NCBI RefSeq assembly: GCF_000146505.1
Contig: NC_017448.1
Location: 3,030,001-3,062,000 of the forward strand
DNA: 32,000 bases
DNA from: Fibrobacter succinogenes subsp. succinogenes S85
GTDB taxonomy: Bacteria > Fibrobacterota > Fibrobacteria > Fibrobacterales > Fibrobacteraceae
Direction: 5' to 3'
The notes beneath the pieces were generated by a model, which had not been told where the DNA came from, made no database searches, and was given only the letters and a program-made list of their open reading frames with translations. Positions 3,464-24,340 of the stretch are shown here, one piece after another. A program made the position numbers and the translations under genes. How positions within the stretch are numbered: the stretch's first letter is position 1; every line of letters starts with the position of its first letter.

Positions 3464-5938
3464 TTACAGCTTAATGCTGCACGGCTTGGCGTTCCAGATT
3501 TCTTCGGCGTACTGCTTGATGGTACGGTCGGAGCTGAACTTGCCCATACGAGCGACGTTGAGGATTGCCATTTCCGCCCAGTGCTTCTTGTCCTGGTAAG
3601 CATCGGCAACCTTCTTCTGCATATCCACATAGCTGCGGAAGTCTGCGCAGAGCATGTACGGGTCATGCGACAAGAGCTTTTCTGCAATGTGCTTGAAGGT
3701 TTCCGGATGATCCGGGCTGAAGAAGCCAGAAGTGATAAGGTCAATTACGCGGCGGAGATCGTCGTCATGTTCGTAGAAGTCGCGCGGACGGTAACCCTTA
3801 GCGAGAAGGTCCGTCACTTCTTCAACGGTGAGACCGAAGATGAAGATGTTGTCGTCACCGACTTCTTCCTTCATTTCCACGTTAGCGCCGTCGAGCGTAC
3901 CAATCGTGAGAGCGCCGTTCAAAGCAAACTTCATGTTACCCGTACCCGAAGCTTCGGTACCAGCGGTAGAAATCTGTTCGGAAAGGTCTGCGGCTGGGAT
4001 GATCTTTTCGGCGAAGGACACGCGGTAGTTCTCGAGGAACACCATCTTGAGCTTGCCCTTGCAATCCGGATCAGCGTCGATGATAGAAGCCACAGCGTTA
4101 GCAAGACGGATAATCTGCTTAGCCATCCAGTAACCCGGAGCGGACTTACCACCGATCATGATGGTGCGCGGCATGATTTCCTTGCCGTCCTTCACCTGGA
4201 TGTAAAGGTGGATGGCATGGAGAATGTTCAAGAGCTGGCGCTTGTATTCGTGAATACGCTTGACCTGCACGTCGAAGAACGTGTTCGTGTCGACATCGAC
4301 ATTCTGCGTTGCCTTGAGGTACTTGGCGAGGCGTTCCTTGTTCTGCTTCTTGACTTCCATGAATTTCTTCTGGAAATCGGCGTCCTTGGCGAACTTTTCG
4401 AGCTTCTTCAAATCGTCCAAATCCTTGACCCAGGATTCGCCAATCTTAGAAGTGATGAGTTCGGACATAGCCGGGTTAGCCTTGCGGACCCAACGACGCG
4501 GTGTCACGCCGTTTGTCTTGTTGTTGAACTTTTCAGGCCACAGTTCGTAGAAGTCTTTGAAGAGCGTGGTCTTGAGGAGGTCGGAGTGGAGTGCTGCTAC
4601 GCCGTTCACAGCAAAGGAACCCACGATGGAGAGGTATGCCATGCGGACCATCTTGCAGCCGCCTTCTTCGATAAGGCTCATGCGGGCGAGACGAGCGTTG
4701 TCGCCAGGCCACTTCATGGAAACCATGCGGAGGAAGCGGGCATTGATTTCGTAAATGATCTGGAGGTGACGCGGCAAGAGCTTTTCGAACAAGCTTACCG
4801 GCCACTTTTCAAGAGCTTCCGGCATGAGCGTGTGGTTCGTATAAGCGAACGTGTGCGTTACGATGTCCCAAGCTTCGTCCCATTCGAGGTTTTCGATGTC
4901 GAGGAGGATGCGCATCATTTCGGCGATAGAAATTGCCGGGTGCGTATCGTTCAACTGGATGGCGACCTTTTCCGGGAAGAGCTTCCAATCGTTGTTGTGG
5001 AGCTTCTTGAAGCGCTTGATGATGTCCTGCAAAGAAGCAGAGCAGAGGAAGTACTGCTGCTTGAGGCGGAGTTCCTTACCGTTCATGGAAGCGTCGTTCG
5101 GGTACAAGACCTTGGAAATCGTTTCGGAAAGTTCCATGTCCTGCACAGCGGCGATGTAGTCACCGTTGTTGAAGTAGCTAAGACCGAAGTCGTCAGCGGA
5201 CTTGGCGCTCCAGAGGCGGAGGTTGTTCACTGTGTTGTTCTTGTAACCCGGGATCGGCGTATCGTACGGGAGGGCCATCACGTAGTCCTTCGTTTCCCAG
5301 CGGTTGCGGAGGCGACCGTTTTCGTCCATCCAGCTGACCACGTAGCCGTAGAACGGCACCTTGATAGCGTTAGCCGGGCGGGCGATTTCCCACGGGTTCG
5401 GGAGGCGCAGCCAGTTATCCGGCTGTTCTTCCTGTTCGCCGTTCACAATCTTCTGGCTGAACATACCGTATTCGTAACGGATGCCCATACCGGTTGCCGG
5501 AAGTTCGAGCGTAGCCATGGAGTCGAGGAAGCAAGCTGCCAAACGGCCAAGACCGCCGTTGCCAAGCCCTGCGTCCACTTCCTGTTCGCGGAGTTCTTCG
5601 AGCGTCATGCCGATTTCGTCAAGAGCTTCCGTCACGGCGCTTTCGACGTCGAGGTTCAACACGGAGTTGCCGAGCGTACGGCCAATCAAAAATTCGAGAG
5701 AGAGGTAATAGACGCGCTTGACGTCTTTTTCGTAATAGGTGTTCTGCGTCTTGATCCAACGGTCAACAAGACGGTCACGCACGGCGTAAGCCACAGCGAG
5801 GAACTTTTCGTGGTCCGTCACCGTGTACTTGCTGCGGGCGAGCGTGTGGTGGATGTGGTCGGTAAATGCCTTGCGGAAGGCTTCCGCATCGGTACCGAGC
5901 ACGGTAATGTCACTTGCATTCTTGGTAGTTTTAGCCAT
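3464..5938 (-). CDS. glgP: glycogen/maltodextrin phosphorylase (GT35)
   Basis: 824 aa with LGNGGLGRLAACFLDS, NDTHPA and the PLP-lysine region EASGTGNMKFALNGALTIGTLDGANVE. Full length for the family. Confidence 0.95.
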   Translation of the reverse strand: MAKTTKNASDITVLGTDAEAFRKAFTDHIHHTLARSKYTVTDHEKFLAVAYAVRDRLVDRWIKTQNTYYEKDVKRVYYLSLEFLIGRTLGNSVLNLDVESAVTEALDEIGMTLEELREQEVDAGLGNGGLGRLAACFLDSMATLELPATGMGIRYEYGMFSQKIVNGEQEEQPDNWLRLPNPWEIARPANAIKVPFYGYVVSWMDENGRLRNRWETKDYVMALPYDTPIPGYKNNTVNNLRLWSAKSADDFGLSYFNNGDYIAAVQDMELSETISKVLYPNDASMNGKELRLKQQYFLCSASLQDIIKRFKKLHNNDWKLFPEKVAIQLNDTHPAISIAEMMRILLDIENLEWDEAWDIVTHTFAYTNHTLMPEALEKWPVSLFEKLLPRHLQIIYEINARFLRMVSMKWPGDNARLARMSLIEEGGCKMVRMAYLSIVGSFAVNGVAALHSDLLKTTLFKDFYELWPEKFNNKTNGVTPRRWVRKANPAMSELITSKIGESWVKDLDDLKKLEKFAKDADFQKKFMEVKKQNKERLAKYLKATQNVDVDTNTFFDVQVKRIHEYKRQLLNILHAIHLYIQVKDGKEIMPRTIMIGGKSAPGYWMAKQIIRLANAVASIIDADPDCKGKLKMVFLENYRVSFAEKIIPAADLSEQISTAGTEASGTGNMKFALNGALTIGTLDGANVEMKEEVGDDNIFIFGLTVEEVTDLLAKGYRPRDFYEHDDDLRRVIDLITSGFFSPDHPETFKHIAEKLLSHDPYMLCADFRSYVDMQKKVADAYQDKKHWAEMAILNVARMGKFSSDRTIKQYAEEIWNAKPCSIKL

Positions 5939-6065
5939 AAATCTAACCTGCCTGGTATTGTTTATTCAATCCAAGGAAAAGTTTAGAAATTTTTACGAGA
6001 TTTGCAATACGTTAATTCTGTAAACCACAGTTGTAAGCCTTTCCAGAATGTGTAAAGGATGTGGG

Positions 6066-7085
6066 CTATCGATGGGAGTATGTGCTGTATAGGAAACCTG
6101 AAAAATCGTATAGGCGATTGCGGAGCGAAATTGGCTTGATGACTGTGGCGCTGTCCGCGTACGAAAGAACCCAACGGTAAAGTAGTTCGTTTGCCTCGAC
6201 CTTCATCGTGACGCGTAATTGACCGTTTTTCAGCTCCTCGACTTTCATGGAACGGTGGAACGGCTTTTCATCAAGGTAGAATTTGGCGCTTGGGTCGAAA
6301 ATGATTTCGACATCTTCGGCTTTCGGATCTTGCGTGCCTAAAATAGCGGAACCGAGCATGACACGCTTGCGGAGTGTTTCGATAACTTTAGGATTTTCTT
6401 GGAATGTTTCTTTGGTGAGCTCGACGCTTTTGATGCGACGGAACTTGAGAACGTACGTCTTACCCGGATTGCTTTGCGATTCGCAGCCGATGTAAATCTC
6501 GTTTTGATAAATGATGATCATCAGCGGAATGCGCACTTTCTTTTCCACTTTTTCTGGGGTAGCGTATTCCACTAGAATTTTACGGTGATCGTGAATGGCT
6601 CGCAAAATGGTCTTGAGTTTGTCGCTCGCGTCTTCCTCGAAATTTGGTGGTGTTCCCATAAAGAGAATTTTTGTATTCAGAGCATCGGAAACTTGCTGGA
6701 GCGCTTTCCGTTCGCTTGCTGGCAGAGTCTTGTTGATCTTTTCAAGCAATGCGAAAATCAGTTCGCTTGTCGCGGGGTAGATGTTGGCAATGCGCTGCAA
6801 GAATACGAAATGCAGCATCGTGTTTTCAAAATTCGGGAACAGCAGGCGGTCTGCCGTCTTGATGGCGGACTGATAGGCGAATGAACGCCCTTTGCCGTGC
6901 GTTTGTATGTACGCTCCGTTGTTCATGGACACGAGAAAGCTCATGTCGCGCTGCACATTGCGGCGTTCTCCCTCTGGAATCTGCAACACTTCCATCAAAT
7001 TACTGATGGAATAGCTCTTGTCTGGATTCGAAATCAAGTGAGCAAAAAGTTGAACAGTGCGTTCCCCGCGAGTTTTCTCTGCCAT
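6066..7085 (-). CDS. WYL-domain transcriptional regulator (wHTH-WYL-WCX architecture, BrxR/CapW-like)
   Basis: N-terminal wHTH-like segment (YSISNLMEVLQIPEGERRNVQRDMSFL). Central WYL-like core (KILVEYATPEK..VRIPLMIIIYQNEIYIGCES..KTYVLKFRRIKSVELTKETF). C-terminal WCX-like end (LLYRWVLSYADSATVIKPISLRNRL). An AGAGG RBS lies 9 nt after the rhuM stop, so the two genes are probably co-transcribed. Confidence 0.75.
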   Translation of the reverse strand: MAEKTRGERTVQLFAHLISNPDKSYSISNLMEVLQIPEGERRNVQRDMSFLVSMNNGAYIQTHGKGRSFAYQSAIKTADRLLFPNFENTMLHFVFLQRIANIYPATSELIFALLEKINKTLPASERKALQQVSDALNTKILFMGTPPNFEEDASDKLKTILRAIHDHRKILVEYATPEKVEKKVRIPLMIIIYQNEIYIGCESQSNPGKTYVLKFRRIKSVELTKETFQENPKVIETLRKRVMLGSAILGTQDPKAEDVEIIFDPSAKFYLDEKPFHRSMKVEELKNGQLRVTMKVEANELLYRWVLSYADSATVIKPISLRNRLYDFSGFLYSTYSHR

Positions 7086-7094
7086 AATAAACCT

Positions 7095-8093
7095 CTAAAT
7101 TTTGTTTGACAGCTTCTTCGTCTCTTCCAAGAACAGATCGAAATCGCTTTTCAAATTAGCCAATTCCTTTTGGCGGAAAAGCTTGTATTCATGTTCCGCT
7201 TTCTCCATAGCTTCGTCGTGGCTTATTTTGCCTTTGCCTTCCAAAATTTTCCGCTGGCTCATGATGATTTGATTGTCGAGAGCTTTAACCCAGTCCTGCA
7301 TTTTCATGGGCTTTTCATCCAAGGCTTGCAATTCGGCGAAATCAAGGAATTGCGATACCATCAGATTCAAACGCTGGAGTTCTTTTTCCGAAAGGTAGTT
7401 TTTTGCGATTTTTACATCGTCTTCTGTGATGTAGTCGCCCCTGAAATTTGTCATGCCAACGAATGGTTTCTCGCTGTCAACTCGCTCGTAGATAAGCTCT
7501 GCTGCGGTATGTTCGTGAACTGCGTAATGCAGTTTGTTTTGAACGGTAGCAAAGAAATCCTTCGTAATTTTTTTGCGGGGATCGTAGTCGATGGACGTTG
7601 CGTAGATGTCCGTGACTTGCTGATAGAAATTGCGTTCTGATGAACGGATGTCGCGGATTCTCTGCAAAAGTTCCTTGAAATAGCGGTTCCTGCCATTTTT
7701 GAGCCTTTCGTCGTCAAGGGAGAACCCCTTCTGGATGAATTCATGCAACCTTGCTGTGGCCCACCGTCTGAACCTTGTGGCAACAGGGGATTGGACACGA
7801 TAGCCGATGGCGATGATGACATCGAGGTTGTAATGAGCGATCTTTCGATGAACCTGTCGTTTCCCCTCTTGTTGAACTAACAAGAAATCCTTGTGAGTTG
7901 CCTCCTTGGGCAGTTCCTCGTCCTTGTATATGTTGTCGATGTGCAGGCTTATATTTTGCTGAGAGGTTTCATACAGCTCGGCTAGCTGAACCTGTGTCAC
8001 CCATACATCTTCGTCGGCAAAACGCACGGAAATATCTGTATTGCCGTCTTTGTCGTGGTAAAGCAGAAAAGTGTTTTCTAATTCGTTCTTCAT
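7095..8093 (-). CDS. RhuM-family protein (DNA-binding/virulence-associated family common in defence islands)
   Basis: From ATG 8093 (the track start at 8102 is a GTG). Contains ISVRFADEDVWVTQVQLAELYETSQQNISLHIDNIYKDEEL, HYNLDVIIAIGYRVQSPVATRFRRWATARLHEFIQKGF and LDDERLKNG, which match the RhuM family consensus from memory. Confidence 0.8.
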   Translation of the reverse strand: MKNELENTFLLYHDKDGNTDISVRFADEDVWVTQVQLAELYETSQQNISLHIDNIYKDEELPKEATHKDFLLVQQEGKRQVHRKIAHYNLDVIIAIGYRVQSPVATRFRRWATARLHEFIQKGFSLDDERLKNGRNRYFKELLQRIRDIRSSERNFYQQVTDIYATSIDYDPRKKITKDFFATVQNKLHYAVHEHTAAELIYERVDSEKPFVGMTNFRGDYITEDDVKIAKNYLSEKELQRLNLMVSQFLDFAELQALDEKPMKMQDWVKALDNQIIMSQRKILEGKGKISHDEAMEKAEHEYKLFRQKELANLKSDFDLFLEETKKLSNKI

Positions 8094-8103
8094 ACTGCAC
8101 AAA

Positions 8104-8228: not shown

Positions 8229-8393
8229 TCAATGTGGAAAGCTTCTTTTCCCCAAAAGTTGCTTGGAATAGAGATAGGCGTCATTTTTGAAAAAATCGTC
8301 TAAATCGCTATCGCCACATTGAAACGAAGAAAGGTCTGTTTTACTATCGATGGGGTAGATTGTGCAATCAGATGCTAAAAGGATTCTTTCCAT
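8229..8393 (-). pseudogene. truncated N-terminal fragment of a GNAT-type (TacT/KacT-like) toxin, with an overlapping short RHH-like antitoxin remnant upstream
   Basis: The 54-aa ORF MERILLASDCTIYPIDSKTDLSSFQCGDSDLDDFFKNDAYLYSKQLLGKRSFPH* carries the F-x-CG-x3-LDxF motif that opens GNAT toxins, then stops before any acetyl-CoA binding core. A 34-codon frame (..NFAQIDEMVARTHSYQEAHNGKNPFSI*) overlaps its start in typical TA geometry. TTGACT-17-TAAATT lies upstream at about 8480-8510. Confidence 0.35.
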
Positions 8394-8639
8394 TATGAGC
8401 CTCTTGATAAGAATGGGTACGAGCGACCATTTCGTCGATTTGGGCGAAATTCAAGAGCCATAACTCCTCCACAATTTAGATTTATTTAGAGTTATAGTCA
8501 ACATCGGTTAATTCTCCTTTCCCCGCGGACACGCAAAAACAGCGAGGCTTTAAAAACTATAAAATGCTCATATGAGCACTAGAAAATATAAATCCGTAAA
8601 TAGCGATTGTCAAGAGCCGCGAAAAAAAATTCCCTATAC

Positions 8640-8670
8640 TCAAATTACGACATTATTTGTCGCAGTAAAA
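8640..8670 (+). repeat. 31-nt element TCAAATTACGACATTATTTGTCGCAGTAAAA, left copy; candidate operator/promoter-proximal element 51 nt upstream of ATG 8722
   Basis: Perfect reverse complement of 17712-17742. Contains an internal dyad CGACA-TTATT-TGTCG. It is followed by GAAGAATAACAA, which resembles GAGATATAACAA after the other copy. Confidence 0.6.
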
Positions 8671-8721
8671 TAGTAATTTTGAAGAATAACAATTTTACGA
8701 GAAAAACATAAAAGAGGCTTT

Positions 8722-9381
8722 ATGAGAGGACGTTACATCTATCAATTGGCGGCGACAATCCTGCCGAACGGCTTAGGGCGCGAAACGGTCGTGCACGACT
8801 TGGGTATTTTCACATCGCTTCGCACCGCCGAAAAAATTATGCGCGAGTATGTCACGGAGGGCAACTTCTATTGCCCCGTCTACAGTTTTTCCATCATGTT
8901 CCTACCGGTGAACGATGATTTGGAATATCAGTCTGAACGCCAAATCAATATCTATTCGCCTGCGGGTGAATTGCAAATTTCGGAATTCAACATGATTTCT
9001 TGCAATGGCGCTTGGAGTAACCGAATGAATATTGACATCAGAGCCATCATTGATATTGGACCGTTTAAAAAGCCGTATTTTGTTCTGTACAATCATTGGC
9101 GTCGTGGGCTTGCGACCAAGTGCGCCCGCATTTCTTTTTTGGAGCCTAAATACGAACTGGGCGCGTCGTACAACAAATCGGTTTGGTTCCTGGATGAAAA
9201 TGAGAAAAAGATGCTCGTCAGGTTTTTGAAAGCGGGGAAACATTCTCCGCATGAAGCTGAACCCTCAAATAATTGGCGACTTGCCATCGGAGCCTTCAAC
9301 AACGAAGTCCGAAACGATGACGATAGTCGCATTTTGCCTTATGACCTCCCGATTCCTGACTACACAAAACTGGAGCCGTGA
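8722..9381 (+). CDS. hypothetical protein (219 aa), first gene of the plus-strand string
   Basis: ORF with RBS AAGAGG 5 nt upstream of the ATG. No motif I recognise. Its stop overlaps the next start (GTGATGA). Confidence 0.6.
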   Translation: MRGRYIYQLAATILPNGLGRETVVHDLGIFTSLRTAEKIMREYVTEGNFYCPVYSFSIMFLPVNDDLEYQSERQINIYSPAGELQISEFNMISCNGAWSNRMNIDIRAIIDIGPFKKPYFVLYNHWRRGLATKCARISFLEPKYELGASYNKSVWFLDENEKKMLVRFLKAGKHSPHEAEPSNNWRLAIGAFNNEVRNDDDSRILPYDLPIPDYTKLEP

Positions 9382-10052
9382 TGACTAGAATTTTATCACG
9401 ACCCCCACGGTGGGACATCCTCGAAAAATTCTATCGTGTTTTTGATAAAGGCCGCAAACGCGGTTGCGTTGAACAGTGGCAAAAAGAAATGCCCAAAAAC
9501 CTTTTGGAACAGGAACTATTCGATACCAAAATACACATCGAATTCTTGACCGACCGTCGAGAAAAACTGAACAAGGAATTTCGCTGGACATTCGCAAACA
9601 TGAAAAAGCTAATCACGATGGACCAGCGCATCCGTGAACTCAACAACGAAATCAGCCGCACCTTCAATGCCACGAAAAAGGACATCGCCGGGCTCGTCGC
9701 GCAAAAACACGAGTGGTATAAAGAATACGAACTCGAAGCTGAAATTTGTCCCGCAAACGATTGGAGCATCGCCGGTGAACACGAATACATCAGCGATTTA
9801 CTTTTCTGGTATGTCAATTGGGATGCCATCAACATTCTTGCAAATACAAACGAAGATCATCACGAACGCCACAAGGCTTACAATGTTCCTGCCTGGAAGC
9901 AGATGATGCTTATAGACAAGTTTGTCGAAGACGGAGTTACTTGGGAACTCGATGCATTGCTTTACGACACTGATGCTAGCCTATACAGTTTCAAGGATGT
10001 CGTCCGATTCCGCCCAGAGCAATTTGAAGTGCGGTATAAGTTGAGCTTTTAA
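9378..10052 (+). CDS. hypothetical protein (224 aa), coiled-coil-rich middle
   Basis: ATGA overlap with the upstream ORF implies translational coupling. The central segment is heptad-like and charged (REKLNKEFRW...RIRELNNEISRTFNATKKDIAGLVAQKHEWYKEYELE). No recognisable catalytic motif. Confidence 0.6.
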   Translation: MMTRILSRPPRWDILEKFYRVFDKGRKRGCVEQWQKEMPKNLLEQELFDTKIHIEFLTDRREKLNKEFRWTFANMKKLITMDQRIRELNNEISRTFNATKKDIAGLVAQKHEWYKEYELEAEICPANDWSIAGEHEYISDLLFWYVNWDAINILANTNEDHHERHKAYNVPAWKQMMLIDKFVEDGVTWELDALLYDTDASLYSFKDVVRFRPEQFEVRYKLSF

Positions 10053-10076
10053 CATTAAAAAGGAGGCTGCTTCGTT

Positions 10077-11132
10077 ATGAAAAAGGCGAGAAGATTGCTT
10101 GATGAATTCTTGGAGAATAACAAGAATTTATTTAAACAGCATGATTTGGAAATTGATGCTGATGAAATACACGATGGTCAGCCTCAAAATGCTTATGCAT
10201 TTGTTGATGTCTTTGAAAAGTGCGATGAAAATAAAAATGGGTGGAATGTACATCCTTTCCCAGGACCGATTTGTTTAAGGATTGGATGTTGTGCGGCTGC
10301 AAATAATGGCTGTGGTTGCTTTTGCCTTTCGTTCTTTATCCCGATGGCGCTTGTTGGGCGGATTCCCGAGAAAATGGTTGATTTGATAATCCCGCACAAT
10401 CCAGATAAATGGACTGAGAAAAAATGGAATGGGACAGATTCTATTTTGATTAAACCTGAGCATTTTCGGCAATTGACTCTTGAAACGATTGGAGTTCGTT
10501 TTGATGGATTGAACTATGATGAAAGCCAAGAAATTGAATCAGATGATGTTCAAAAAATGATTGTTGAGAAAACTGCGCAATTGGAAAATGGAACATCGTG
10601 GTTTTATTCCTATTTCTTTGACAAGAATGATGCAGAGAGTGTTTTCGAAGAGCTTTTTGATGACATTATGCCGATATTAGAAAGTAAAAATTCAGATTGG
10701 TATGAATGCGTTGCTGAAATCCAGGCTCGTCGAGGTCAAGGACTTTTTCGGCGTCAGATGATGAAATATTGGGAAAATAAATGTGCGTTTACGGGATGCG
10801 ATAATCCTGAATTGTTGGTAGCTTGTCACGCAAAGCCTTGTGCTGCGTGTGAGAATGTCGAGCAACGAATGAGTCCATATAACGGATTTTTGTTAAGGAC
10901 TGATATTGCTTATTTGTTTAATAAAGGGCTCATTACTTTTCTTGATTGCGGTCTTATAGTTATTTCTAAAAAGCTAAGCGACGAGGACCAGAAAGCTTTT
11001 GGACTTTATGGCGATATGTCTATTCGGAAACTTGATGAAAAAAATCGTGAGTTTTTGCATTACCACCAAAAATATGTTTGGCAAGATCGCGATAGGGGCG
11101 AGCTGATTTTGAAGATGAATGGGTATCTGTGA
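10077..11132 (+). CDS. HNH endonuclease (HNH_2-type C-terminal domain) with unknown Cys-rich N-terminal domain
   Basis: RBS AAAGGAGG lies upstream. The C-terminus has RRGQGLFRRQMMKYWENKCAFTGC..LLVACHAKP...NGFLLRTDIAYLFNKGLITF, the pattern of stand-alone HNH nucleases of the PF13391 type. The N-terminal ~220 aa are unassigned (CLRIGCCAAANNGCGCFC). Confidence 0.75.
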   Translation: MKKARRLLDEFLENNKNLFKQHDLEIDADEIHDGQPQNAYAFVDVFEKCDENKNGWNVHPFPGPICLRIGCCAAANNGCGCFCLSFFIPMALVGRIPEKMVDLIIPHNPDKWTEKKWNGTDSILIKPEHFRQLTLETIGVRFDGLNYDESQEIESDDVQKMIVEKTAQLENGTSWFYSYFFDKNDAESVFEELFDDIMPILESKNSDWYECVAEIQARRGQGLFRRQMMKYWENKCAFTGCDNPELLVACHAKPCAACENVEQRMSPYNGFLLRTDIAYLFNKGLITFLDCGLIVISKKLSDEDQKAFGLYGDMSIRKLDEKNREFLHYHQKYVWQDRDRGELILKMNGYL

Positions 11133-11218
11133 TTCTATGTTGGAATAAGAATTACTGAATTTTGAAGGAAAATGAGTATAGATTTAAAGGAGGTGTATAA
11201 TCTAAAGAAGGGGAAAAT

Positions 11219-12595
11219 ATGTTTTATAGCAATAAATTACATAACAAGTCTAATATACAAAAATTGACTTTAGATGAACTTGTTAATCGATTGTCTTGTA
11301 AATCGGATGTCTTTGTCGTATCCTGTTTTTATGGTTTGGACACTATCCAAAATTTTTTTGATAAAATGTATGATTGTGGAAGACAAGGTCGCTCAACAAC
11401 CGTAATTGTTAGTTCGCAGGGTAGTTCCACAGATCGATTAATTTCAATTTTAAAAGATTTAACACGCGTTAAATTACATCAAACGCAGAAATTATATGTT
11501 TATGAAAATTCTTCTTTACTCCACACAAAATTATACCTATCAATGGATTCTAATGTTTCAAAAAACACATGTTGTTTAGTTGGTAGCCTGAATCTAAGTG
11601 ATAATGCTTTTTCTTCAAATGAGGAAATTTTAGTTGATATTGCAGAAACCAAAGACAAAAAAGCAGCAAGTGATTACATAGATTCCATTCTTTATGAAAA
11701 TGACAAAAGTTTGATAGATGTAAAAGAGTTGCAGAACGAAATGAAAGGCATAAAGGATATAGATGCTTTTTTAAAAGCTAAATATGCGAAGAAATGTGAG
11801 GCTATTTTCAATGGCACATTAAAAGATTTTATTGGTAATGGTTATATATTTTTTAAAGCGCAACGAAACTTTTCGCTGACATATCCCCAAAAATCATTAT
11901 GGGATAATTGGCTTTCAAATATTGACCCGCAAAGCAGGAAAAATCTTATTCCTAATACGAAGAATCCTCGATTAAATGTTTATGATTTACTAGGAATCAA
12001 TGAAGAAATTGATGAAGCTGATACTATCTATATAAAGCAAAATTCGGTTGAAACCAATTTGGGCTATTGGGTGCCCACAGGGAAAAGACATGATTTTATT
12101 CAAGAAACTATAAATAAGATTACGGATCAACGAAAAGAGAGGTATGATAGTATTAATAATATTCTAATTCAAAATAGAGAAAATCTTTCAAATGATACTT
12201 CAAAAAGACTAAAGGATTCTTTTGATAGATTAAATATGTTGTTGACAGAAGATAAAAAGCTCAAAGAAAATGATTTTGACGAGTTAAAAGAAGAATTCTG
12301 TCGTTTTATCCGTGAAAAATCAATGTGGTTCGAAAAAGGTGAAAATAAGGAATTGTATAAGCAAAACGGAATATATTTTAACCCTATGCCTAATTTTTGG
12401 GATGATATTCCTGCTGTAAAAGAGTTTAGAGAAAGCTTTTTTGATGATATAAAATTAAGACATTCAAAAAACGGGAAAAAGATTGTTGATGTTTTGTTTG
12501 AATATTTTGAAATGGAAAAAGGTGAGGTGAATTTAAATAAAAAATTGGGCGAATGGAAGAAAATAGATGAGGAATCCTTTAAACCTAAAGGTTAA
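11219..12595 (+). CDS. phospholipase-D-superfamily nuclease-like protein (single HKD, NgoFVII/BfiI/Nuc-like N-domain) with long K/E/N-rich helical C-terminal region
   Basis: LLHTKLYLSMD...CCLVGSLNLSDNAF gives HxK...D...GSxN, a single HKD motif at about residue 100. The remaining ~300 aa are low-complexity helical. The gene is very AT-rich. Confidence 0.6.
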   Translation: MFYSNKLHNKSNIQKLTLDELVNRLSCKSDVFVVSCFYGLDTIQNFFDKMYDCGRQGRSTTVIVSSQGSSTDRLISILKDLTRVKLHQTQKLYVYENSSLLHTKLYLSMDSNVSKNTCCLVGSLNLSDNAFSSNEEILVDIAETKDKKAASDYIDSILYENDKSLIDVKELQNEMKGIKDIDAFLKAKYAKKCEAIFNGTLKDFIGNGYIFFKAQRNFSLTYPQKSLWDNWLSNIDPQSRKNLIPNTKNPRLNVYDLLGINEEIDEADTIYIKQNSVETNLGYWVPTGKRHDFIQETINKITDQRKERYDSINNILIQNRENLSNDTSKRLKDSFDRLNMLLTEDKKLKENDFDELKEEFCRFIREKSMWFEKGENKELYKQNGIYFNPMPNFWDDIPAVKEFRESFFDDIKLRHSKNGKKIVDVLFEYFEMEKGEVNLNKKLGEWKKIDEESFKPKG

Positions 12596-12603
12596 ATTTT
12601 GCC

Positions 12604-13182
12604 GTGAATAAGAAAAATCAATTTGAATTCCGACCGCAAATAGCGGGGTACGATTGTGCCCCGACAGCTTTTATTAACGCTTTAATCTATTTATTTAAGC
12701 GTGAAGAAATTCCTATAGATGTTGTGCAAGGAATTTATAAAATTACTTTGAATGGGGGCTTATACCATGGATCTTCGGAAAAGGATATCGCAAAACTTTC
12801 AAAGTGGCTTAAGGATTATCGCAGAAAAGACTGGAGTTTTGCAGTTGATATAGATCGTCAAGTTGGGAGAATAGCGAACTTTGACAAAATTGATTTAGAA
12901 GATGAAAACGTATGTTGTATTTTACATGTGAAAATAGCTGGTGGGTACTGGCATTATATTACAGCCTTTTACGAAAAGGGCGACTATATTTATTGTTATG
13001 ATCCTTATTTTGAAGAAGAAAAAGAAACTCGTAATTGGCGTTCAAAGAAAATGAGAAATGGCTGTAATTTGAAAGTTAAAAGAGAATATCTATTTGCAGA
13101 AAAAGATAGCGGCGTTTATCGAACTGGGTTATCTAAGAATCGCGAGTTCATTTTAATAAAAAGGATTAAACCCGCGAAATAA
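12604..13182 (+). CDS. papain-fold cysteine peptidase-like protein (C39-like)
   Basis: GTG start 8 nt after the PLD gene stop. GYDCAPTAFINALIYLF is a candidate nucleophile Cys at a helix N-terminus. GGYWHYITAF is a candidate His and CYDPYF a candidate Asp/Asn. Order and spacing fit Peptidase_C39-like folds. Confidence 0.45.
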   Translation: MNKKNQFEFRPQIAGYDCAPTAFINALIYLFKREEIPIDVVQGIYKITLNGGLYHGSSEKDIAKLSKWLKDYRRKDWSFAVDIDRQVGRIANFDKIDLEDENVCCILHVKIAGGYWHYITAFYEKGDYIYCYDPYFEEEKETRNWRSKKMRNGCNLKVKREYLFAEKDSGVYRTGLSKNREFILIKRIKPAK

Positions 13183-13202
13183 ATTCTCCGCCATTCTAAT
13201 CT

Positions 13203-13811
13203 ATGCAAGAACAGACCTCCAAATTTATCAAATCCAAATCCGAAACCTGCTGTGATTTCTGGCAATCGCTTGTTAAAAAGATTTATGCCCCAAATGCTGA
13301 TGTGATTTTCCTGCATAGAAGGGATGTTCTTGCTGCTTTTAAACGCTTGCAAAAAGCGAAGCCAAATTACGGGTTTGAAATTTCTTATAAGCAAGAATCA
13401 AAGGGGTATCGGAATTGCGATAAGTCGCAAGTTGTTTGCTTGCGCAAGTCTTTGGGTAGTGCCGCTTCAATTGAATTCCTGGTAGATTGTGATGCTAAAT
13501 ATTTGAGCATTCGTTTTTCACATATTGACGCAGGGAAATTTAATGTTTCGTATGAACGCTGCTGGTGTAATCTTGAAGCGACTCTTGAAAACCTTGTGAA
13601 GTTCGTTGATGAATTCACGAATTATAACGAGCAATCGTCAAGAATTATAATGGAAATCGAAAAAGATTATACCATTCAAATGTCTTTTGATATTCAAAAC
13701 TATCTTGAGCAAATCCCGGCGTTGCAAAATGTTCTGAAGCAAACGGAAAACTTCTTAAAAGAAATTCCGTTCCCAATATCTATTAAGGCTCTTGACAAGA
13801 GTCGTTTTTGA
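13203..13811 (+). CDS. hypothetical protein (202 aa)
   Basis: ORF 20 nt after the peptidase gene on the same strand. No recognisable motif. Confidence 0.5.
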   Translation: MQEQTSKFIKSKSETCCDFWQSLVKKIYAPNADVIFLHRRDVLAAFKRLQKAKPNYGFEISYKQESKGYRNCDKSQVVCLRKSLGSAASIEFLVDCDAKYLSIRFSHIDAGKFNVSYERCWCNLEATLENLVKFVDEFTNYNEQSSRIIMEIEKDYTIQMSFDIQNYLEQIPALQNVLKQTENFLKEIPFPISIKALDKSRF

Positions 13812-13875
13812 ATTTATATTGTTGGTGAACAAATGTGTAATCCTGTCTTTTTTGCTTGTAGATGGGAAGGAGTAA

Positions 13876-14904
13876 ATGATGAAAAATGATGTCCCGGCAG
13901 TTGCCAAGTCTGAATTTTCCCTGATAGACGAAAATATGCTTAAATCGCGAATCTACACGATTCGTGGTCTCAAAGTCATGCTTGATGCTGACTTGGCGGA
14001 GATTTATGGGTATAGTACGAAGGCTTTTAATCAACAGATTAAGAATAATATCGAAAAATTCGATGAAGATTTTCGCTTTCAGCTGAATTTTGGGGAAATT
14101 GAAGAACTTTCAAGGTGCAAAATTTGCACCATGAACATGGAAACCGAAAATAAGGAACCTTCAAGGTCAAAATTTTTGACCTTGAACAAGGGCTCTCGCG
14201 GTTCAAATGTCAAGTATGCTCCTTACGCTTTTACCGAGCAAGGCATTTATATGCTTATGACTGTTCTCAAGGGCGAACGGGCGACGGCACAAAGCAAGGC
14301 TCTTATCCGCCTTTTCAAGCAGATGAAAGACTATATCATTGCTGAAAATCGGAATTTGTTGAGTAATGAAGGCCTAGTTCAAATAGCCATGCAAACGGAA
14401 TGGAATACCAAGGATATTGCCGTCATTCAGTCCGACTTGCAGAAGGTCATGGAAAATTTTGTTGATCCTTCTACCTACAAGCATTTCTTGATTTTGAATG
14501 GAAAAAAGTTGGAAGCGGATGTTGCTTATACGCAAATTTATGGCATGGCAAAGAAATCCATCGCCATTATTGACGATTATGTTGGCGTGAAAACGCTCGA
14601 TCTTTTGCGAGGAATTGCCAAGGGCGTTTCTGTGACAATTTATAGCGATGAACAAGGATTTGAATCGCTGGCAGATCAAATTAAGAATGATTTCTCGGCG
14701 GCTCGCCCTGATGTAAAGCTCTTCACGGATCGGACAAGGGGTAAAATCCATGACCGCTATATTTTTCTGGATTACGGCTTAAAAGGTGAAAAGCTTTTTC
14801 ACTGTGGTGCTTCATCTAAAGATGCTGGTAACAAAATTACTACCATCATGCAGATTGAGAATACTGAAATTTACCACATATTGATGGATAAATTAAAAAG
14901 ATAA
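13876..14904 (+). CDS. ORF6N (KilA-N-like) DNA-binding domain protein with C-terminal PLD-like HDR domain
   Basis: N-terminus has IYTIRGLKVMLDADLAEIYGYSTKAFNQQIKNNIEKFDEDFRFQL and APYAFTEQGIYMLMTVLKGERA (ORF6N family). C-terminus has KIHDRYIFLDYG..LFHCGASSKDAGNK, matching the HDRF-x-IID...GASLKDLGKK tail seen in this protein family. Confidence 0.75.
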   Translation: MMKNDVPAVAKSEFSLIDENMLKSRIYTIRGLKVMLDADLAEIYGYSTKAFNQQIKNNIEKFDEDFRFQLNFGEIEELSRCKICTMNMETENKEPSRSKFLTLNKGSRGSNVKYAPYAFTEQGIYMLMTVLKGERATAQSKALIRLFKQMKDYIIAENRNLLSNEGLVQIAMQTEWNTKDIAVIQSDLQKVMENFVDPSTYKHFLILNGKKLEADVAYTQIYGMAKKSIAIIDDYVGVKTLDLLRGIAKGVSVTIYSDEQGFESLADQIKNDFSAARPDVKLFTDRTRGKIHDRYIFLDYGLKGEKLFHCGASSKDAGNKITTIMQIENTEIYHILMDKLKR

Positions 14905-14906
14905 CA

Positions 14907-15314
14907 TTACCCTCTTATCAAAACAAATGGTTTACCCATTTCCTTTATACGCTTGAGGTTTTCTGCTGTGCCTTTGCTTTTTCCATCCCAAATCATAAGA
15001 GCTTGGTCACAATCTTTTGCCATTTGAACGTCTTTCACATAGTGAAAGGCGCGGCCGGTAAGGCCTTTGGCCGCTTCGGCGCATGAGTGGATTTTTGCGG
15101 ATGATGTAAAATTGTTTCTCGGGTTGACTCCGCTACAATAAACGGTTATATTGCTGAAACTCTTGGATTCAAGGTGCTTTTGTACGACGGCATCAACCCC
15201 GTAGCAATCACCGATAAGAATTTCATCGTTGTTTTCGATGAATTGGTCGATGAATATTTTTGCCAATTCAGGCAACTTTGAAATGGATTTTGATCCGGAT
15301 ATAAATATTTTCAT
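14907..15314 (-). CDS. small SLOG-superfamily Rossmann-like protein (DUF2493/YspA/DprA-like pattern)
   Basis: 135 aa. KIFISGSKSI, ILIGDCYGVDAVVQKHL, ITVYCSG and ALMIWDGKSKGTAENLKRIKEMGKPFVLI follow the GxR / GxxxGxD / xGSxGT layout of DUF2493- and DprA-type SLOG domains. RBS AAGAGG is present, 35 nt downstream of the AAA gene stop. Confidence 0.5.
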   Translation of the reverse strand: MKIFISGSKSISKLPELAKIFIDQFIENNDEILIGDCYGVDAVVQKHLESKSFSNITVYCSGVNPRNNFTSSAKIHSCAEAAKGLTGRAFHYVKDVQMAKDCDQALMIWDGKSKGTAENLKRIKEMGKPFVLIRG

Positions 15315-15349
15315 AGCGCCTCTTTATAGAAATTTTTTTCTCATATCAG

Positions 15350-17674
15350 TTATAACCCCATTCTGCGTCCTTCGCGAGTGTCCTTGCATTCGATTTCGTG
15401 GCGCAGTGCTTGCAGAATGTTTTCGGCGGAGATTTCGCTTTCGTCATAATAGCGGAATGATCCATAGACTGCGTTGAAATCGCCTGGTGCGAGTGATTTT
15501 AGCTCGCGAGCGGCGGCGGGGCATTCGACTTTCGGGAAAAACGCTTGCCATACTTTTTCGATTCCCTCTGGCTGCAAGTAGTTGAATTTTATCTTCAATG
15601 CGAATCGCCTGCGTGAAGCTGAGTCTAAATTATTGTTGAAGTTTGTTGCCGCAATGAAGATTCCCTTGAAGTTTTCCATTTGCGTTAATAGCTCGTTTAC
15701 TTGCGTTACTTCCCACCTGTGTTCGGCTCCGCCACGTTCCTGTAGAAAACTGTCCGCTTCATCTAAGAAAAGGATGGCTTTCTTTTCTTCGGCTTCATGG
15801 AACATTGCTCGAATGTTTTGCTCGGTTCCGCCAACGAAACAATCTAAAATTTCACTAGCTCGTTTTACAATGAGTTTACGGTCGAGAGTCCTTGCAATGT
15901 GCTTTGCGAGTTCTGTTTTGCCAGTACCGGGAGCTCCGTAGAATAGAGTGTTCAAGGATTCGGGACAGTCGTAATCATTGAAGTCTTTCCATTTGTCGTT
16001 GAATGAATTGATGACTTTCATGACTTTACTCATGTCGGTATCGATGTTCAGAGCATCTAAAATGTAATTGGGTGCATGGGTGTCTCTATCTCGATGAACA
16101 TATTCTCGCGAGAGTGATAGTAAATTGGATTGAGCTTCTGCTATAATGCGTACTGCTTTTTCGGGAGGAGTCTTGCTACCTTTCTCTTGCAGATGTTTTG
16201 CGCCTGCAATGGCCTGCGTGATACCGCCTGCGGTAATAGAAAGCTCGGATGCTAGTTGTTGAACGAATTTGTGTGACAACATGTTTTTTGCATCTTGCTC
16301 GCTAATGACAGATTCCCAGATTTCCATTCGTTTTTCGGAATCAAGCCTTTCAAATTCTATGGAATAATCGAATCTGCGACGTGTACTATTTTCGATATAT
16401 CTGATATTGTTTGAAATCCAAATGACGGGTACTTTGATTTGCTCCAAGAAAAAGTTAAGCGCTCCTTTTTCACAAAAATTCAGGATGATGTCGGCTTCAT
16501 CTACCAAGAGAATTGCACGCTTGTTTTGGTATTTGGTTGCTGCATACAAGATGCTTCCCATGCGTTCTTGGATGGAAGTGCTTTCTTTTGATTCTCTGTT
16601 TACGCCATCAATGCTTGTGTTGGTAAGGACTAACGGTCGCTTAAGTTCTTTGGCTATCGCTTTGGCGAGTTCCGTTTTGCCGGTTCCTTCGACTCCATAT
16701 AAGAAAATATTGATACCTTGGCCGATATCTACATGCTTGAGCATGTCGTATGCCATTTCGATTTTTGGGTTTTTGTTGCACAGCTTTTTATAGGGGACTG
16801 AATTGCCTTCGTAGACTTTGAAATAGAGAGAATCTAAGTCGCTGCCTGATGTCCCGTCTAGAAAGAGCGCTATTCGTTCGGATGTGTCGAGGTCGTTGTG
16901 GAGAATCCCCATCCGCTTGAGTGTTGATTTGTTCAAAATTGCGTTTTCTATTTGAAGTTCAGGATATAGCGTAGTAAATGTGTTTGCGTAATTTGATTCA
17001 TAGTGTCTATTGGATTCGACTATATTACGGAGGGCGCTGCATGTTTCTTTGTTGCGGAAAATCCATGCAAATATGAGAATTTCCATTTCTGTTGGATTGA
17101 GGTTGAACGATTTTTGTATGATGTCAAGACGTTTTTGATAGGGGTCGTCAAAAGAACTCGTTGTTTTGAGAATTTTTAACATTTCCTTTGAAATCCCATC
17201 GAAGAAAATCTTTTGGGCCGGAGCGTTGAAAATATCTTCGCCGTCAAGGTTTTGACCTGTGACATTTCGGATTGCGTCGATAGAGCTGTTGTTTTTGAGA
17301 ACTTCTCTAATTTTTGTTATTGTTTTCTGACGATCTTGGTAAAGTTCTGATTTGTCGGATTCTTCGACGTCGAATAGCTTGTTGTCAATTCTGATTTTTC
17401 TCTTATGGGAAGACTGCTTTGGGCTTTTTGGATGTTTATCTTCATCGTTGTTTTTTTGCTTAAAATGTTTAGCGAGTCTCTCTAAAATGCGTGAGGCGTT
17501 TTCTTTCGGAAGAATGGCGATGCTGTCTGATGCGTCTGGATATTTTTTTGTGCATCGAAGCATGCGAATCCAGTATTCGTAGCTCTTGAGCGTGATGAAA
17601 TTTAGGCCGATTAGTCTGTTTTCGGTTCTTTTTTGTAACGCCTTGCAAACTTTCTTGAAGTAATCTTTTTTCAT
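15350..17674 (-). CDS. tandem classical AAA+ ATPase (two AAA modules) with ~320-aa unknown N-terminal region
   Basis: D1 has GVEGTGKT (Walker A), AILLVDEAD (Walker B), WISNN and STRRRF. D2 has GAPGTGKT, AILFLDEADSF, FIAATNFNNNLDSASRRRF (sensor-1 and SRH arginines). The D2 context ASEILDCFVGGTEQNIRAMF is typical of the classical AAA clade. Confidence 0.85.
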   Translation of the reverse strand: MKKDYFKKVCKALQKRTENRLIGLNFITLKSYEYWIRMLRCTKKYPDASDSIAILPKENASRILERLAKHFKQKNNDEDKHPKSPKQSSHKRKIRIDNKLFDVEESDKSELYQDRQKTITKIREVLKNNSSIDAIRNVTGQNLDGEDIFNAPAQKIFFDGISKEMLKILKTTSSFDDPYQKRLDIIQKSFNLNPTEMEILIFAWIFRNKETCSALRNIVESNRHYESNYANTFTTLYPELQIENAILNKSTLKRMGILHNDLDTSERIALFLDGTSGSDLDSLYFKVYEGNSVPYKKLCNKNPKIEMAYDMLKHVDIGQGINIFLYGVEGTGKTELAKAIAKELKRPLVLTNTSIDGVNRESKESTSIQERMGSILYAATKYQNKRAILLVDEADIILNFCEKGALNFFLEQIKVPVIWISNNIRYIENSTRRRFDYSIEFERLDSEKRMEIWESVISEQDAKNMLSHKFVQQLASELSITAGGITQAIAGAKHLQEKGSKTPPEKAVRIIAEAQSNLLSLSREYVHRDRDTHAPNYILDALNIDTDMSKVMKVINSFNDKWKDFNDYDCPESLNTLFYGAPGTGKTELAKHIARTLDRKLIVKRASEILDCFVGGTEQNIRAMFHEAEEKKAILFLDEADSFLQERGGAEHRWEVTQVNELLTQMENFKGIFIAATNFNNNLDSASRRRFALKIKFNYLQPEGIEKVWQAFFPKVECPAAARELKSLAPGDFNAVYGSFRYYDESEISAENILQALRHEIECKDTREGRRMGL

Positions 17675-17711
17675 GTTTCACTCTCATTTTGTTATATCTC
17701 TAAAAATAGAT

Positions 17712-17742
17712 TTTTACTGCGACAAATAATGTCGTAATTTGA
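17712..17742 (-). repeat. 31-nt element, right copy (minus strand reads TCAAATTACGACATTATTTGTCGCAGTAAAA); 37 nt upstream of ATG 17674
   Basis: Perfect inverted copy of 8640-8670, in the same orientation relative to its downstream gene. Confidence 0.6.
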
Positions 17743-17747
17743 AGAAA

Positions 17748-17783
17748 GTGAAAAAAGGCAGTCCGCACTTGCGAGCTGCCTTT
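17748..17783 (-). terminator. Rho-independent terminator of the GNAT gene
   Basis: Minus strand has AAAGGCAG-14 nt loop-CTGCCTTT followed by TTTTT, starting 5 nt after the GNAT stop. It abuts the right 31-nt element and marks the island edge. Confidence 0.6.
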
Positions 17784-17787: not shown

Positions 17788-18411
17788 TTACAATTGTCCG
17801 GGGAGTACTAGCTTTTCCTTAGGCGGGAAGTTGGCTTCGTACTTCTCGAATTCTTCGGGCATTCGCTCGGTTACGAAGTAGCCCTCGGGGTCTTTGTATG
17901 AGCCCATCACTCCGTCCAAGAATCCCTCGTCGAGTTCCTTGCACAAGAAGTATGGCGCGTCGCTGTTCGGGTCGTCGGCGTAGCGGATGCCCTTGACGTA
18001 AGCGGGGACAAATCCGCTCTTGCCGTAGAATCCGATGTTCCCGACGATGAGCAGGCAACCTGCGCTCATCTTGCGCGCGAGTTCCATGGAATAGTCGAGG
18101 AGCGCCTTGCCGTATCCCTGTCGCTTGTAGTTCGGATGGATGCTGATGGGCCCGAAGGTCATCATGCGGATTTTGCGTCCGTCGTCGGCATCGATTTTCG
18201 ACCACGCGTACATCACGTGTCCGATAATTTGTCCGTCAACTTCCATAACGAGCGAGAGTTCTGGGATAAAGCTTGGGTCGTTCCTGTAATGGTGGAGGAC
18301 AAAATGCTCCACGCAGCCGGGACGGTAAACGTTCCAGAATGCTTCTCGGGTGAGATTTTCGACGATTTTAAAGTCGCGCGGTTGTTCCGTGCGGATATTG
18401 TATTTTTTCAT
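17788..18411 (-). CDS. GNAT-family N-acetyltransferase
   Basis: 207 aa. GPISIHPNYKRQGYGKALLDYSMELARK is the acetyl-CoA binding Q/RxxGxG/A motif. Composition returns to core-like GC. Confidence 0.8.
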   Translation of the reverse strand: MKKYNIRTEQPRDFKIVENLTREAFWNVYRPGCVEHFVLHHYRNDPSFIPELSLVMEVDGQIIGHVMYAWSKIDADDGRKIRMMTFGPISIHPNYKRQGYGKALLDYSMELARKMSAGCLLIVGNIGFYGKSGFVPAYVKGIRYADDPNSDAPYFLCKELDEGFLDGVMGSYKDPEGYFVTERMPEEFEKYEANFPPKEKLVLPGQL

Positions 18412-23520: not shown

Positions 23521-23529
23521 TTGTTTTAG

Positions 23530-23602
<73 letters not shown>

Positions 23603-23614
23603 GAGGACAGCCCA

Positions 23615-23643
23615 TATATAGAAATAAAATTTGTAGTTATAAA
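23615..23643 (-). promoter_or_regulatory. promoter candidate for tRNA-Gly copy 1
   Basis: Minus strand has TTTATA-17 nt-TATATA, ending 12 nt upstream of the tRNA 5' end. The same arrangement recurs upstream of copy 2. Confidence 0.4.
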
Positions 23644-23782
23644 GGGGTGAGTGCCGAAAAAAGTGAAATTTTTTTGAGAGTTCCGAAAGAATTTGGTCGC
23701 ACCCTCTCCCCCGAGGGGTCTCGGGTCCTCGTTCAGCATCTGACTACAAAACAAAAAAGGCGCTTTGCAGCGACTTTTTTTT

Positions 23783-23935
23783 AGAGCGAGAATGTCAAAG
23801 TCCAGTCCCCGCTTCGCGGCTGGACTTTGCCCCTTCGGGCTTGCACTCACTGCGTTCGCGTCAAGCGCAAAATTTGTCTCTTCGCACTTCGTGCATCTCG
23901 TTGTTTAGTCGGCCCCTCTTCTCGGGTCCTCGTCC
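23783..23935 (-). ncRNA. repeat unit C2 (153 nt), B/C chimera, probably defective
   Basis: The 5' part is B-type (..GGGGCCGACTAAACAACGAG..) and the 3' part is C-type (..GACAAATTTTGCGCTTGACGCG..). The two strands of H1 therefore no longer pair. H3 (CAAAGTCCAG...CTGGACTTTG) is intact. Confidence 0.35.
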
Positions 23936-23955
23936 AGTTCAGTACATAAAACAAA

Positions 23956-23980
23956 AGAGCCTAGCTTGACGCTAGGCTCT
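23956..23980 (-). terminator. Rho-independent terminator after tRNA-Gly copy 2
   Basis: Identical hairpin and T-run to those at 23496-23520. Confidence 0.6.
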
Positions 23981-23989
23981 TTGTTTTAG

Positions 23990-24062
<73 letters not shown>

Positions 24063-24320: not shown

Positions 24321-24340
24321 AGTTCAGTACATAAAACAAA

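Follow-up and report, generated by a model that had tools for sequence, protein, structure and literature searches.

We find that three adjoining enzyme genes of Fibrobacter succinogenes subsp. succinogenes S85 probably represent separately acquired nuclease cassettes stacked in a hypervariable defense-cargo slot of a Fibrobacter island, a reading to which we assign a probability of roughly 0.6. The genes lie within the 32,000-nucleotide (nt) stretch of chromosome that we analyzed (NC_017448.1, positions 3,030,001 to 3,062,000; hereafter the window, whose own numbering is used throughout) and encode an HNH protein of 351 amino acids (aa) (10077..11132, + strand, ATG start), a phospholipase D (PLD) family protein of 458 aa (11219..12595, +, ATG start), and C192, a 192-aa putative C39-like cysteine peptidase (12604..13182, +, GTG start). 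The HNH and PLD genes are separated by 86 nt and the PLD and C192 genes by 8 nt. An initial annotation made from the DNA letters had placed the three open reading frames (ORFs) correctly, and its two gaps and its hand counts of G+C in two lines of sequence (13 at 11221-11280 and 33 at 20581-20640) proved exact on recounting; its three enzyme assignments hold, through Pfam matches to HNH_2 and PLDc_2 for the nucleases and through a family alignment with AlphaFold2 (AF2) and Foldseek for the C39-like fold.

The trio forms an AT-rich block, as first described, with a G+C (GC) content near 30% at its lowest versus ~53% in the core. Values for single genes are 29.6% for PLD, 34.4% for C192, 38.3% for HNH, and 37.4% for the downstream gene D; the core genes GlgP, GNAT, and SSF reach 53-54%. 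In the 1-kb interval 11501-12500 the GC fraction is 0.296, versus ~0.53 for the core genes on either side. Such GC-poor cargo is consistent with horizontal acquisition.

A variable cargo slot and its breakpoints

We collected related contigs by looking up identical proteins and by scanning reference genomes and metagenomes, the scan for C192 loci being based on a 10-sequence alignment, and distinguished ~16 slot architectures in loci (numbered with the prefix L) from rumen and hindgut Fibrobacter metagenome-assembled genomes. The loci are mosaics in which the genes A and B on the left and D and an ORF6N gene on the right, ~50-98% identical, surround variable cargo at at least five chromosomal sites. 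Gene A (8722..9381, +, 219 aa), the left flank of the slot, is 66-100% identical among the loci carrying it, which lie at several chromosomal sites, and B (9378..10052, +, 224 aa) is 72-99% identical across loci; neither has a recognized domain, with no match for A in Pfam, NCBIfam, PADLOC, or PHROG and none for B in PHROGs. Gene D (13203..13811, +) encodes 202 aa in the window and 240-248 aa in other loci, and gives a single PHROGs match at E=0.0095.

The HNH-PLD458-C192 cargo of the window recurs in the near-identical contig L024 and, with other genes interposed, as HNH-p84-NOV_C-PLD-C in L011 (C standing for a C192-type gene). HNH genes accompany PLD genes and no C gene in HNH-PLD486 (L014-16; PLD486 is 33% identical to PLD458), HNH-p358-PLD635 (L105-109; the last 200 residues of PLD635 are D, a fusion), p124-HNH(37%)-PLD318 (L017-19), and PLD493(32%)-p111-p62-HNH(31%) (L009/10), whereas PLD458-type genes are followed by C with no HNH in L001-4, L008, and L027. 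Further cargoes ending in C are p196-p262-C (L005-7), a PF01844-type HNH gene and C (L025/26/29), and HNH_2-C (L028). L104 carries HNH(49%)-p165-C39-like(36%)-D, and L012/13 a stand-alone PLD-tail protein followed by HNH(44%)-NOV_C-p169 and a reverse C39-like ORF. The slot also holds Type III Mod and Res genes (L021), NOV_C with a helicase and another PLD (L022), or HipBA (L023). In L008, AbiEii genes lie just downstream of D, and one PLD relative adjoins a GmrSD-type gene. L110, in which the HNH gene is split, was uninformative, its assembly being frameshifted. With Type III restriction-modification (R-M), HipBA, AbiEii, NOV_C, HNH, and PLD variants in or beside it, the slot has the makeup of a defense hotspot. 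The trio is present in only 2 of the ~16 architectures, and each of its genes also occurs without the others.

We defined breakpoints as the positions where DNA homology stops or resumes between alleles at the same chromosomal site. In comparison with L021 and L022, homology is lost at the stop codon of B (10051-10052), which marks the left breakpoint of the slot, and is regained inside D (at 13231 and 13376); with L014 and L105, A-B-HNH is common up to 11214-11218 and homology is back at 13224-13231. The right breakpoint of the slot lies ~20-30 nt into D. L001, L008, and L027 have in common with the window only 11152/11160-13666, and the PLD 5' leader (11152..11218, +) moves with the PLD cassette. 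In L011, the NOV_C cassette is inserted at 11208-11216, splitting HNH from PLD. The window and L001 are 98-100% identical in PLD DNA, 81-89% in C192, and 54-73% in D, with a break at the PLD|C192 junction, and their A/B frames, at different chromosomal sites, are ~77-83% identical; the PLD gene has therefore moved alone recently. Judged by these breakpoints, HNH, PLD, and C192-D are three separate exchange units.

The initial annotation had proposed either a multi-effector module or stacked single-gene defenses. As a conserved unit the module finds no support, given that outside the window the trio is confined to the near-identical L024 and the NOV_C-split L011 and that breakpoints lie between its genes; the trio is, narrowly, found together elsewhere, yet in spirit its distribution counts against a fixed trio. 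Stacking is the closer description, although the genes stand in one co-oriented string and C192 is tied to the gene before it, and the idea of horizontally acquired, effector-type cargo is borne out.

Several observations nevertheless weigh against acquisition of unconnected genes, and some of them would suit a single multi-effector defense system made of the whole trio, perhaps with A, B, and D, whose co-oriented, closely spaced genes probably form one operon. In the window, L014, L017, L105, and L009, HNH-family genes have PLDc_2 genes near them that represent five highly divergent types, and the two occur close together in six architectures, including the deeply diverged pair of L009/10, in which HNH and PLD co-diverge over their full length at 31-32% identity; this recurrence hints at a functional link rather than pure stacking. 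In L012, where PLD is absent, a stand-alone 266-aa homologue of the PLD tail (p266) adjoins the HNH gene, and loci with HNH (L012, L028, and L104) carry C39-like genes of three forms. A, B, and D, being without recognizable function, could likewise be components of a system and not mere frame. Across architectures, however, the association of HNH with PLD is not significant (5/6 versus 3/7, p=0.27); two sites (L001-4 and L008) have PLD-C-D and no HNH, and HNH with PLD occurs without C in L014, L017, and L105. The NOV_C cassette of L011 interrupts the series, Type III R-M and HipBA occupy the same slot, and the recombination boundaries separate all three genes, so that we regard a single system of this kind as improbable.

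Stacking of separately acquired cassettes is compatible with joint expression: as the genes from A to D are co-oriented behind a shared, conserved upstream element, they are probably co-expressed, and the cargo is probably transcribed from one regulated promoter. A single string of A, B, HNH, PLD, C192, and D starts at the left copy of the inverted repeat I1 described below, and the cargo between A/B and D is swapped among strains by recombination.

The HNH and PLD proteins

The HNH protein consists of a ~212-aa N-terminal domain of no known relatives, a linker, and an HNH_2 domain (Pfam PF13391, residues 236-288, E=5.5e-9; 36.2 bits, cutoff 21). The C-terminal ~135 residues match, over 214-335, the linker and HNH domain of VcaM4I (PDB 6yex, E=1e-17). 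The build is that of the PUA-HNH Type IV enzymes of the VcaM4I/TagI type, in which a non-catalytic N-terminal domain precedes HNH_2 in a single chain of ~310-350 aa (PMC7897488, PMC6765204). In VcaM4I, mutagenesis found H224, D250, and D254 essential and N241 structural (PMC7897488). The catalytic His and the structural Asn are in place in the window protein too, as H251 and N269, and are invariant in the family alignment. In contrast, where VcaM4I has its two essential metal-ligand Asp residues, D250 and D254, the window protein has A278 and N282, a replacement (in the motif RTDIAYLFNKG) common to it and its relatives P0024 and P0027 (89-91% identical), whereas all other, more distant relatives retain both Asp residues (LDALFDKG). 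With both metal ligands replaced, the nuclease activity of this clade is uncertain and may be weakened or lost; D276 or N282 might make up for the loss. This point, too, counts against a functional stack.

The N-terminal domain differs from that of VcaM4I in having no similarity to EVE, SRA, or YTH domains or to any Pfam or PDB entry, a profile of eight N-domain sequences giving only chance-level hits in the PDB. Its description as Cys-rich is correct as a count (8 Cys in the first 211 residues), but these residues are not conserved among homologues, which makes a structural zinc site unlikely. HNH genes found on plasmids match the window protein in the C-terminal half only. We considered whether the domain is related to the PLD tail, and hhalign shows no relation. 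The domain stands where VcaM4I has its EVE reader, and it would recognize foreign DNA, which the HNH domain would cut. A separate observation concerns two other slot proteins, the NOV_C protein of L012 (9242-10279) and the PF01844-type HNH protein of L026 (654-2045), whose N-terminal ~180 residues are homologous (29% identity); one N-domain on two nuclease domains would be a pattern typical of sensor-nuclease shuffling.

The PLD protein matches PLDc_2 (Pfam PF13091) over residues 41-154 (E=1.7e-9; 38.1 bits, cutoff 27). Its catalytic motif, H102-T-K104...G123-S124-L-N126, is kept in all seven PLD-domain-bearing relatives, with five residues between K and D versus four in the HxK(x)4D consensus. 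H102-x-K104 is the sole HxK accompanied by the G-S-x-N signature, bare H-x-K sequences at residues 8 and 415 lacking it. Nuc, BfiI, and NgoFVII/NgoAVII likewise have one HxK...GSxN motif per chain, and the relatives of the window protein also match the RE_NgoFVII model of an N-terminal PLD domain. In the single-motif enzymes Nuc and BfiI, dimerization builds one active site; a single motif per chain implies a dimeric active site for the window protein as well, which by analogy would have to dimerize. A double-glycine leader at the N terminus (KLTLDELVNRLSC) was considered and rejected, since it lacks GG, its spacing does not suit such a leader, and the segment belongs to the PLD fold.

The C-terminal part had been noted as a K/E/N-rich helical tail, and the composition is as stated (K 13%, N 9.7%, E 9.4%); it is, however, a conserved domain of ~260 aa with the invariant motifs SGY..FK..FSL, S.ET..G.W, and PMPN.WDD...F..SF, which also occurs on its own. 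The tail has no match in Pfam and its profile only chance-level matches in the PDB, where the whole PLD sequence also found nothing; PHROGs likewise had no match for PLD. In sequence the tail does not correspond to the B3-like DNA-binding domain of BfiI and NgoAVII, and no methyltransferase or NTPase partner adjoins the gene. We suggest that this domain may provide target recognition or regulation. In PADLOC, the catalytic domain matches ZacB (2.5e-8) and DrmC (3.6e-6), but the likeness to DISARM DrmC, Azaca ZacB, and Mokosh is confined to the PLD domain, and no other required component of DISARM, Azaca, or Mokosh scored among the ten island proteins scanned. The island holds new members of the Type IV-like HNH and the PLD nuclease families.

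A C39-like peptidase tied to the gene before it

C192 itself has no sequence match in Pfam, NCBIfam, PADLOC, PHROGs, or the PDB. Its close family comprises 16 clusters within 5.8 billion proteins, and an exhaustive profile search added 237 more distant representative clusters. Across 60 aligned family members, whose mean column identity is 29%, every sequence has H117, and no fewer than 90% have Q12, C18, and D133; Gln and Cys are spaced as in papain (Gln-x5-Cys), and the motif H-Y-[VI]-L...[FY]-D-P-Y is present. Relatives match Peptidase_C39_2 (19/60), DUF3335 (17/60), and Peptidase_C39 (15/60), so that the Peptidase_C39_2 assignment proposed at first holds for the family, although C192 itself matches no C39 model. 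An AF2 model built on the 60-sequence alignment has a predicted local distance difference test score (pLDDT) of 93.2 and a predicted template modeling (pTM) score of 0.91; an earlier model from a shallow 16-sequence alignment (pLDDT 33) was discarded. In a Foldseek search of the PDB, the top seven matches are the C39 domains of PCAT1 and LahT (probability 1.0), and the target-normalized TM score is 0.63-0.68 against isolated C39 domains such as those of LahT and ComA. Lower-ranked matches include CtaG and papain-like contact-dependent inhibition (CDI) and other toxins (8ssm, 9l5u), and viral fold matches are likewise peptidases. The predicted fold and the Q/C/H/D set thus agree with peptidase C39 of PCAT1, ComA, and LahT and with Peptidase_C39_2, DUF3335, and BtrH_N/CtaG, and the identification of C192 as a C39-like papain-fold cysteine peptidase is supported transitively, by its family members and the predicted structure. 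C192 differs from the PCAT1, ComA, and LahT domains in being a stand-alone protein of 192 aa, with ~50 extra C-terminal residues, that follows nuclease genes in a defense island; no ABC transporter and no small ORF with a GG leader, the partners of bacteriocin-type C39 peptidases, are among the island ORFs listed and scanned. The 138-aa C39-like ORF of L012 is not significantly related to C192, though its His motif could be aligned.

Across loci, the C192 gene is always tightly joined to the one before it, at -22 to +18 nt, whether this is PLD, HNH(PF01844), HNH_2, or p262, and the preceding gene encodes a nuclease wherever it can be identified. The GTG start 8 nt past the PLD stop codon, which the initial annotation had pointed out, recurs in five PLD-type loci, each time after a conserved AAAGG(T/A)TAA. 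Only the first 4-10 codons vary with the upstream partner. Going by these junctions, C192 is not a stand-alone gene but is always joined to the 3' end of a preceding gene; C192 and D would form the constant 3' end of the operon, with C192 translationally coupled to whichever gene precedes it and perhaps serving an accessory role in processing or turnover.

An arrangement of this kind raises the alternative that the last nuclease of the slot, here PLD, forms one operon with the C39-like peptidase and D in which the effector is exchangeable, the HNH gene being a separate neighbor; the peptidase would activate, mature, or remove the nuclease, for example by a cut at or near its C-terminal domain, or would respond to a phage protein. 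C192 never having its own intergenic region, the retention of the GTG start and AAAGG(T/A)TAA junction, and intact catalytic residues all speak for it. D lies 20 nt after C192 wherever both genes are called and follows a C192-type gene in every Fibrobacter-type locus long enough, even L104 with its 36%-identical C gene. A further sign of coupling, at odds with independent cassettes, is the PLD::D fusion of L105-107, from three different samples: a 635-aa ORF (L105:6272-8179) in which a divergent PLD with its tail is joined to a full D, 86% identical to that of the window. In L030, the final part of a gene for a protein like a Type I R-M specificity subunit is overlapped by a C192 relative of 42% identity. 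On the other hand, the partners are unrelated in fold, which makes a specific cleavage site hard to picture; the PLD gene has been exchanged without C192 (98-100% versus 81-89% identity); C is missing beside the PLD-family genes of L014, L105, L009/10, and the P0006 contig; an intact C is often accompanied by a broken D; and distant relatives of C192 adjoin sigma-54 activators, not nucleases. Weighing these points, we hold the coupled operon to be unlikely, though still in contention. A fuller form of the proposal is rather unlikely and speculative: that the constant peptidase, with D, and an exchangeable upstream nuclease (PLD, two kinds of HNH, and others) make up an undescribed protease-coupled nuclease defense module, whose effector would be swapped at the first codons of the peptidase within a WYL-controlled operon marked by a 56-nt palindromic element. 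In its stronger version, A, B, the HNH N-domain, and the PLD tail would be new invader-sensing modules. A full-text literature search on C39 peptidases, defense systems, phage, and nucleases returned no description of nuclease-C39 pairing as a defense arrangement.

For the distant C192 relatives (27-30% identity), the neighbors in 11-14 environmental loci are sigma-54 activators, a conserved pairing not set in a defense context. The neighbors have Sigma54_activat and HTH_8 domains, and the C192 relative is usually directly downstream, at gaps of 0 to ~110 nt (L040, L041, L050, L055, L068, L072, L076, L077, L084, L093, and others, from sediment, hypersaline, and other metagenomes). Only in the Fibrobacter clade and in a few relatives of 42% identity, then, is C192 associated with defense islands.

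Signs of decay bear on the stacking of working cassettes from another side. Compared with the 240-248-aa forms, D has in the window a 41-aa (123-nt) in-frame internal deletion at 13657-13666, a site seen as a 10-nt overlap in alignments, and the same short form is found in L105; in several other loci D is frameshifted or truncated while C192 is intact. Together with the loss of both Asp residues in HNH, this means that parts of the locus may be decaying. The locus could then be a decaying patchwork of selfish or toxin-type genes, that is, nuclease toxins, a protease toxin, and D as a former antidote, maintained by linkage only, a view to which the split HNH gene of L110 (a frameshifted assembly) and the papain-like CDI and other toxins among the fold neighbors of C192 can be added. 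Yet the HNH, PLD, and C192 ORFs are intact, their relatives are full length across many samples, the catalytic residues of PLD and C192 are conserved, and there are no secretion or delivery domains; C192 intact beside a broken D is a misfit for a toxin in need of its antidote. For the same reason, D often being broken where C is intact, we rejected C-D as a toxin-antitoxin pair. Decay of this kind as the general explanation is very improbable.

Island borders, regulation, and known hotspots

The island spans ~8630-17752, between genes encoding glycogen phosphorylase (3464-5938) and a GNAT protein (17788-18411), and is bracketed, from A through an ATPase gene, by two inverted copies of the 56-nt inverted repeat I1 that are 82% complementary. 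The left copy (8630..8685), a candidate operator or promoter, lies ~80 nt upstream of A; the right, inverted copy (17697..17752) lies at the right island edge, upstream of the leftward operon of the ATPase and a 135-aa protein. Its 31-nt core (AAATTACGACATTATTTGTCGCAGTAAAATA) holds a CGACA-N7-TGTCG palindrome and precedes the first frame gene by ~80 nt in 16/16 related loci examined, and in most loci long enough an inverted copy is upstream of the inward-facing right-hand operon. I1 could be the operator of a WYL regulator or the terminal repeats of a mobile unit. A WYL/WCX protein gene (6066..7085, - strand; Pfam WCX 4.5e-12, WYL 7e-4) is always just outside one I1 copy, and is 71-98% identical beside the island, on either side, in L005, L008, L011, L014, L021, L022, and L105. 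WYL regulators control other defense loci, and by analogy this candidate regulator may control the island through I1 as its operator.

Between the WYL gene and the left I1 is a RhuM-family gene (7095-8102, -; PADLOC PDC-S05, 8e-142) that is present, duplicated, truncated, or absent at the same site in L008, L011, L014, L022, and L105, which makes this a second variable position. Next to it, a 54-aa ORF (8229-8393, -; MERILLASDCTIYPID...FQCGDSDLDDFFKNDAYLYSKQLL) resembles the N terminus of a GNAT-type toxin acetyltransferase, has no Pfam match, and lies in DNA that is 97.6% identical in L011; it is probably a gene remnant.

Downstream of D, a terminator-like hairpin (13787..13820, +), formed by the inverted-repeat pair I2, marks the probable end of the A-to-D transcription unit and overlaps a promoter-like TTGACA-17-TATATT before the ORF6N gene, both being consensus matches only. 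A promoter scan did no better than shuffles (21 sites versus 22.9 expected), and no promoter call rests on the scan alone. The ORF6N protein (13876-14904, +) is matched from end to end by PADLOC PDC-S05 (1.8e-100); toward its C terminus, the sequence HDRYIFLD...GASSKDAG resembles an HKD-type motif with Arg for Lys, not called by Pfam, and marks a possible third PLD-like domain in the island. The 135-aa protein (E135; 14907-15314, -), a constant right-hand frame gene, matches PHROG 289 "GTP-binding domain" (1.8e-9). The last gene (15350-17674, -) encodes a double AAA+ ATPase of 774 aa with IetA-like PADLOC matches (6.9e-46); the island genes scanned included no IetS-like protease, and in other strains proteins of 200-350 aa of no recognized kind replace the ATPase.

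Farther out, three tandem tRNA-Gly(GCC) genes (23529-24447, -; ~385-460 nt apart) lie 6 kb beyond the island, and two long ORFs, of 801 aa (3581-5986, +; zero Pfam matches) and 512 aa (20468-22006, -), are antisense to the glycogen phosphorylase and sodium:solute symporter genes and are most likely shadow ORFs of these real genes. The ORFs scanned in the remainder of the window include no integrase domain, and we rejected an integron-like cassette system, the junctions of 8-24 nt leaving no room for attC-like sites. Island genes were not found on viral contigs, PLD and C192 were not found on plasmids, and the E. coli genomes searched gave no match.

This layout resembles known defense islands and hotspots, such as the E. 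coli immigration control region and those of P2/P4, in its conserved frame, low GC, and hypervariable cargo of restriction, toxin-antitoxin, and nuclease genes. As in hotspots under WYL-type regulators (BrxR/CapW-like), a WYL-domain gene adjoins the island, and the breakpoints lie at frame genes. The frame genes A, B, and D are, in contrast, uncharacterized and Fibrobacter-specific; the frame occurs at several chromosomal sites without an integrase and has its own 56-nt inverted repeat, and no phage or satellite link was found in PHROGs or viral contigs.

Fibrobacter is a key fiber-degrading bacterium of the rumen, and its defense islands are, to our knowledge, unstudied. The genus is among the most defense-rich of the rumen (PMC11834463). 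The mapped slot, with its breakpoints, repeat, and candidate regulator, can be used to catalogue Fibrobacter defense genes and to find new ones by position, and two of the nuclease architectures in it carry putative recognition domains without known relatives. Its most novel, testable lead is the nuclease-peptidase operon. If the peptidase does gate or mature the nuclease, the few bacterial immune effectors known to be under protease control would gain a papain-fold member; otherwise, the locus would still be a clear example of gene-by-gene shuffling of defenses.

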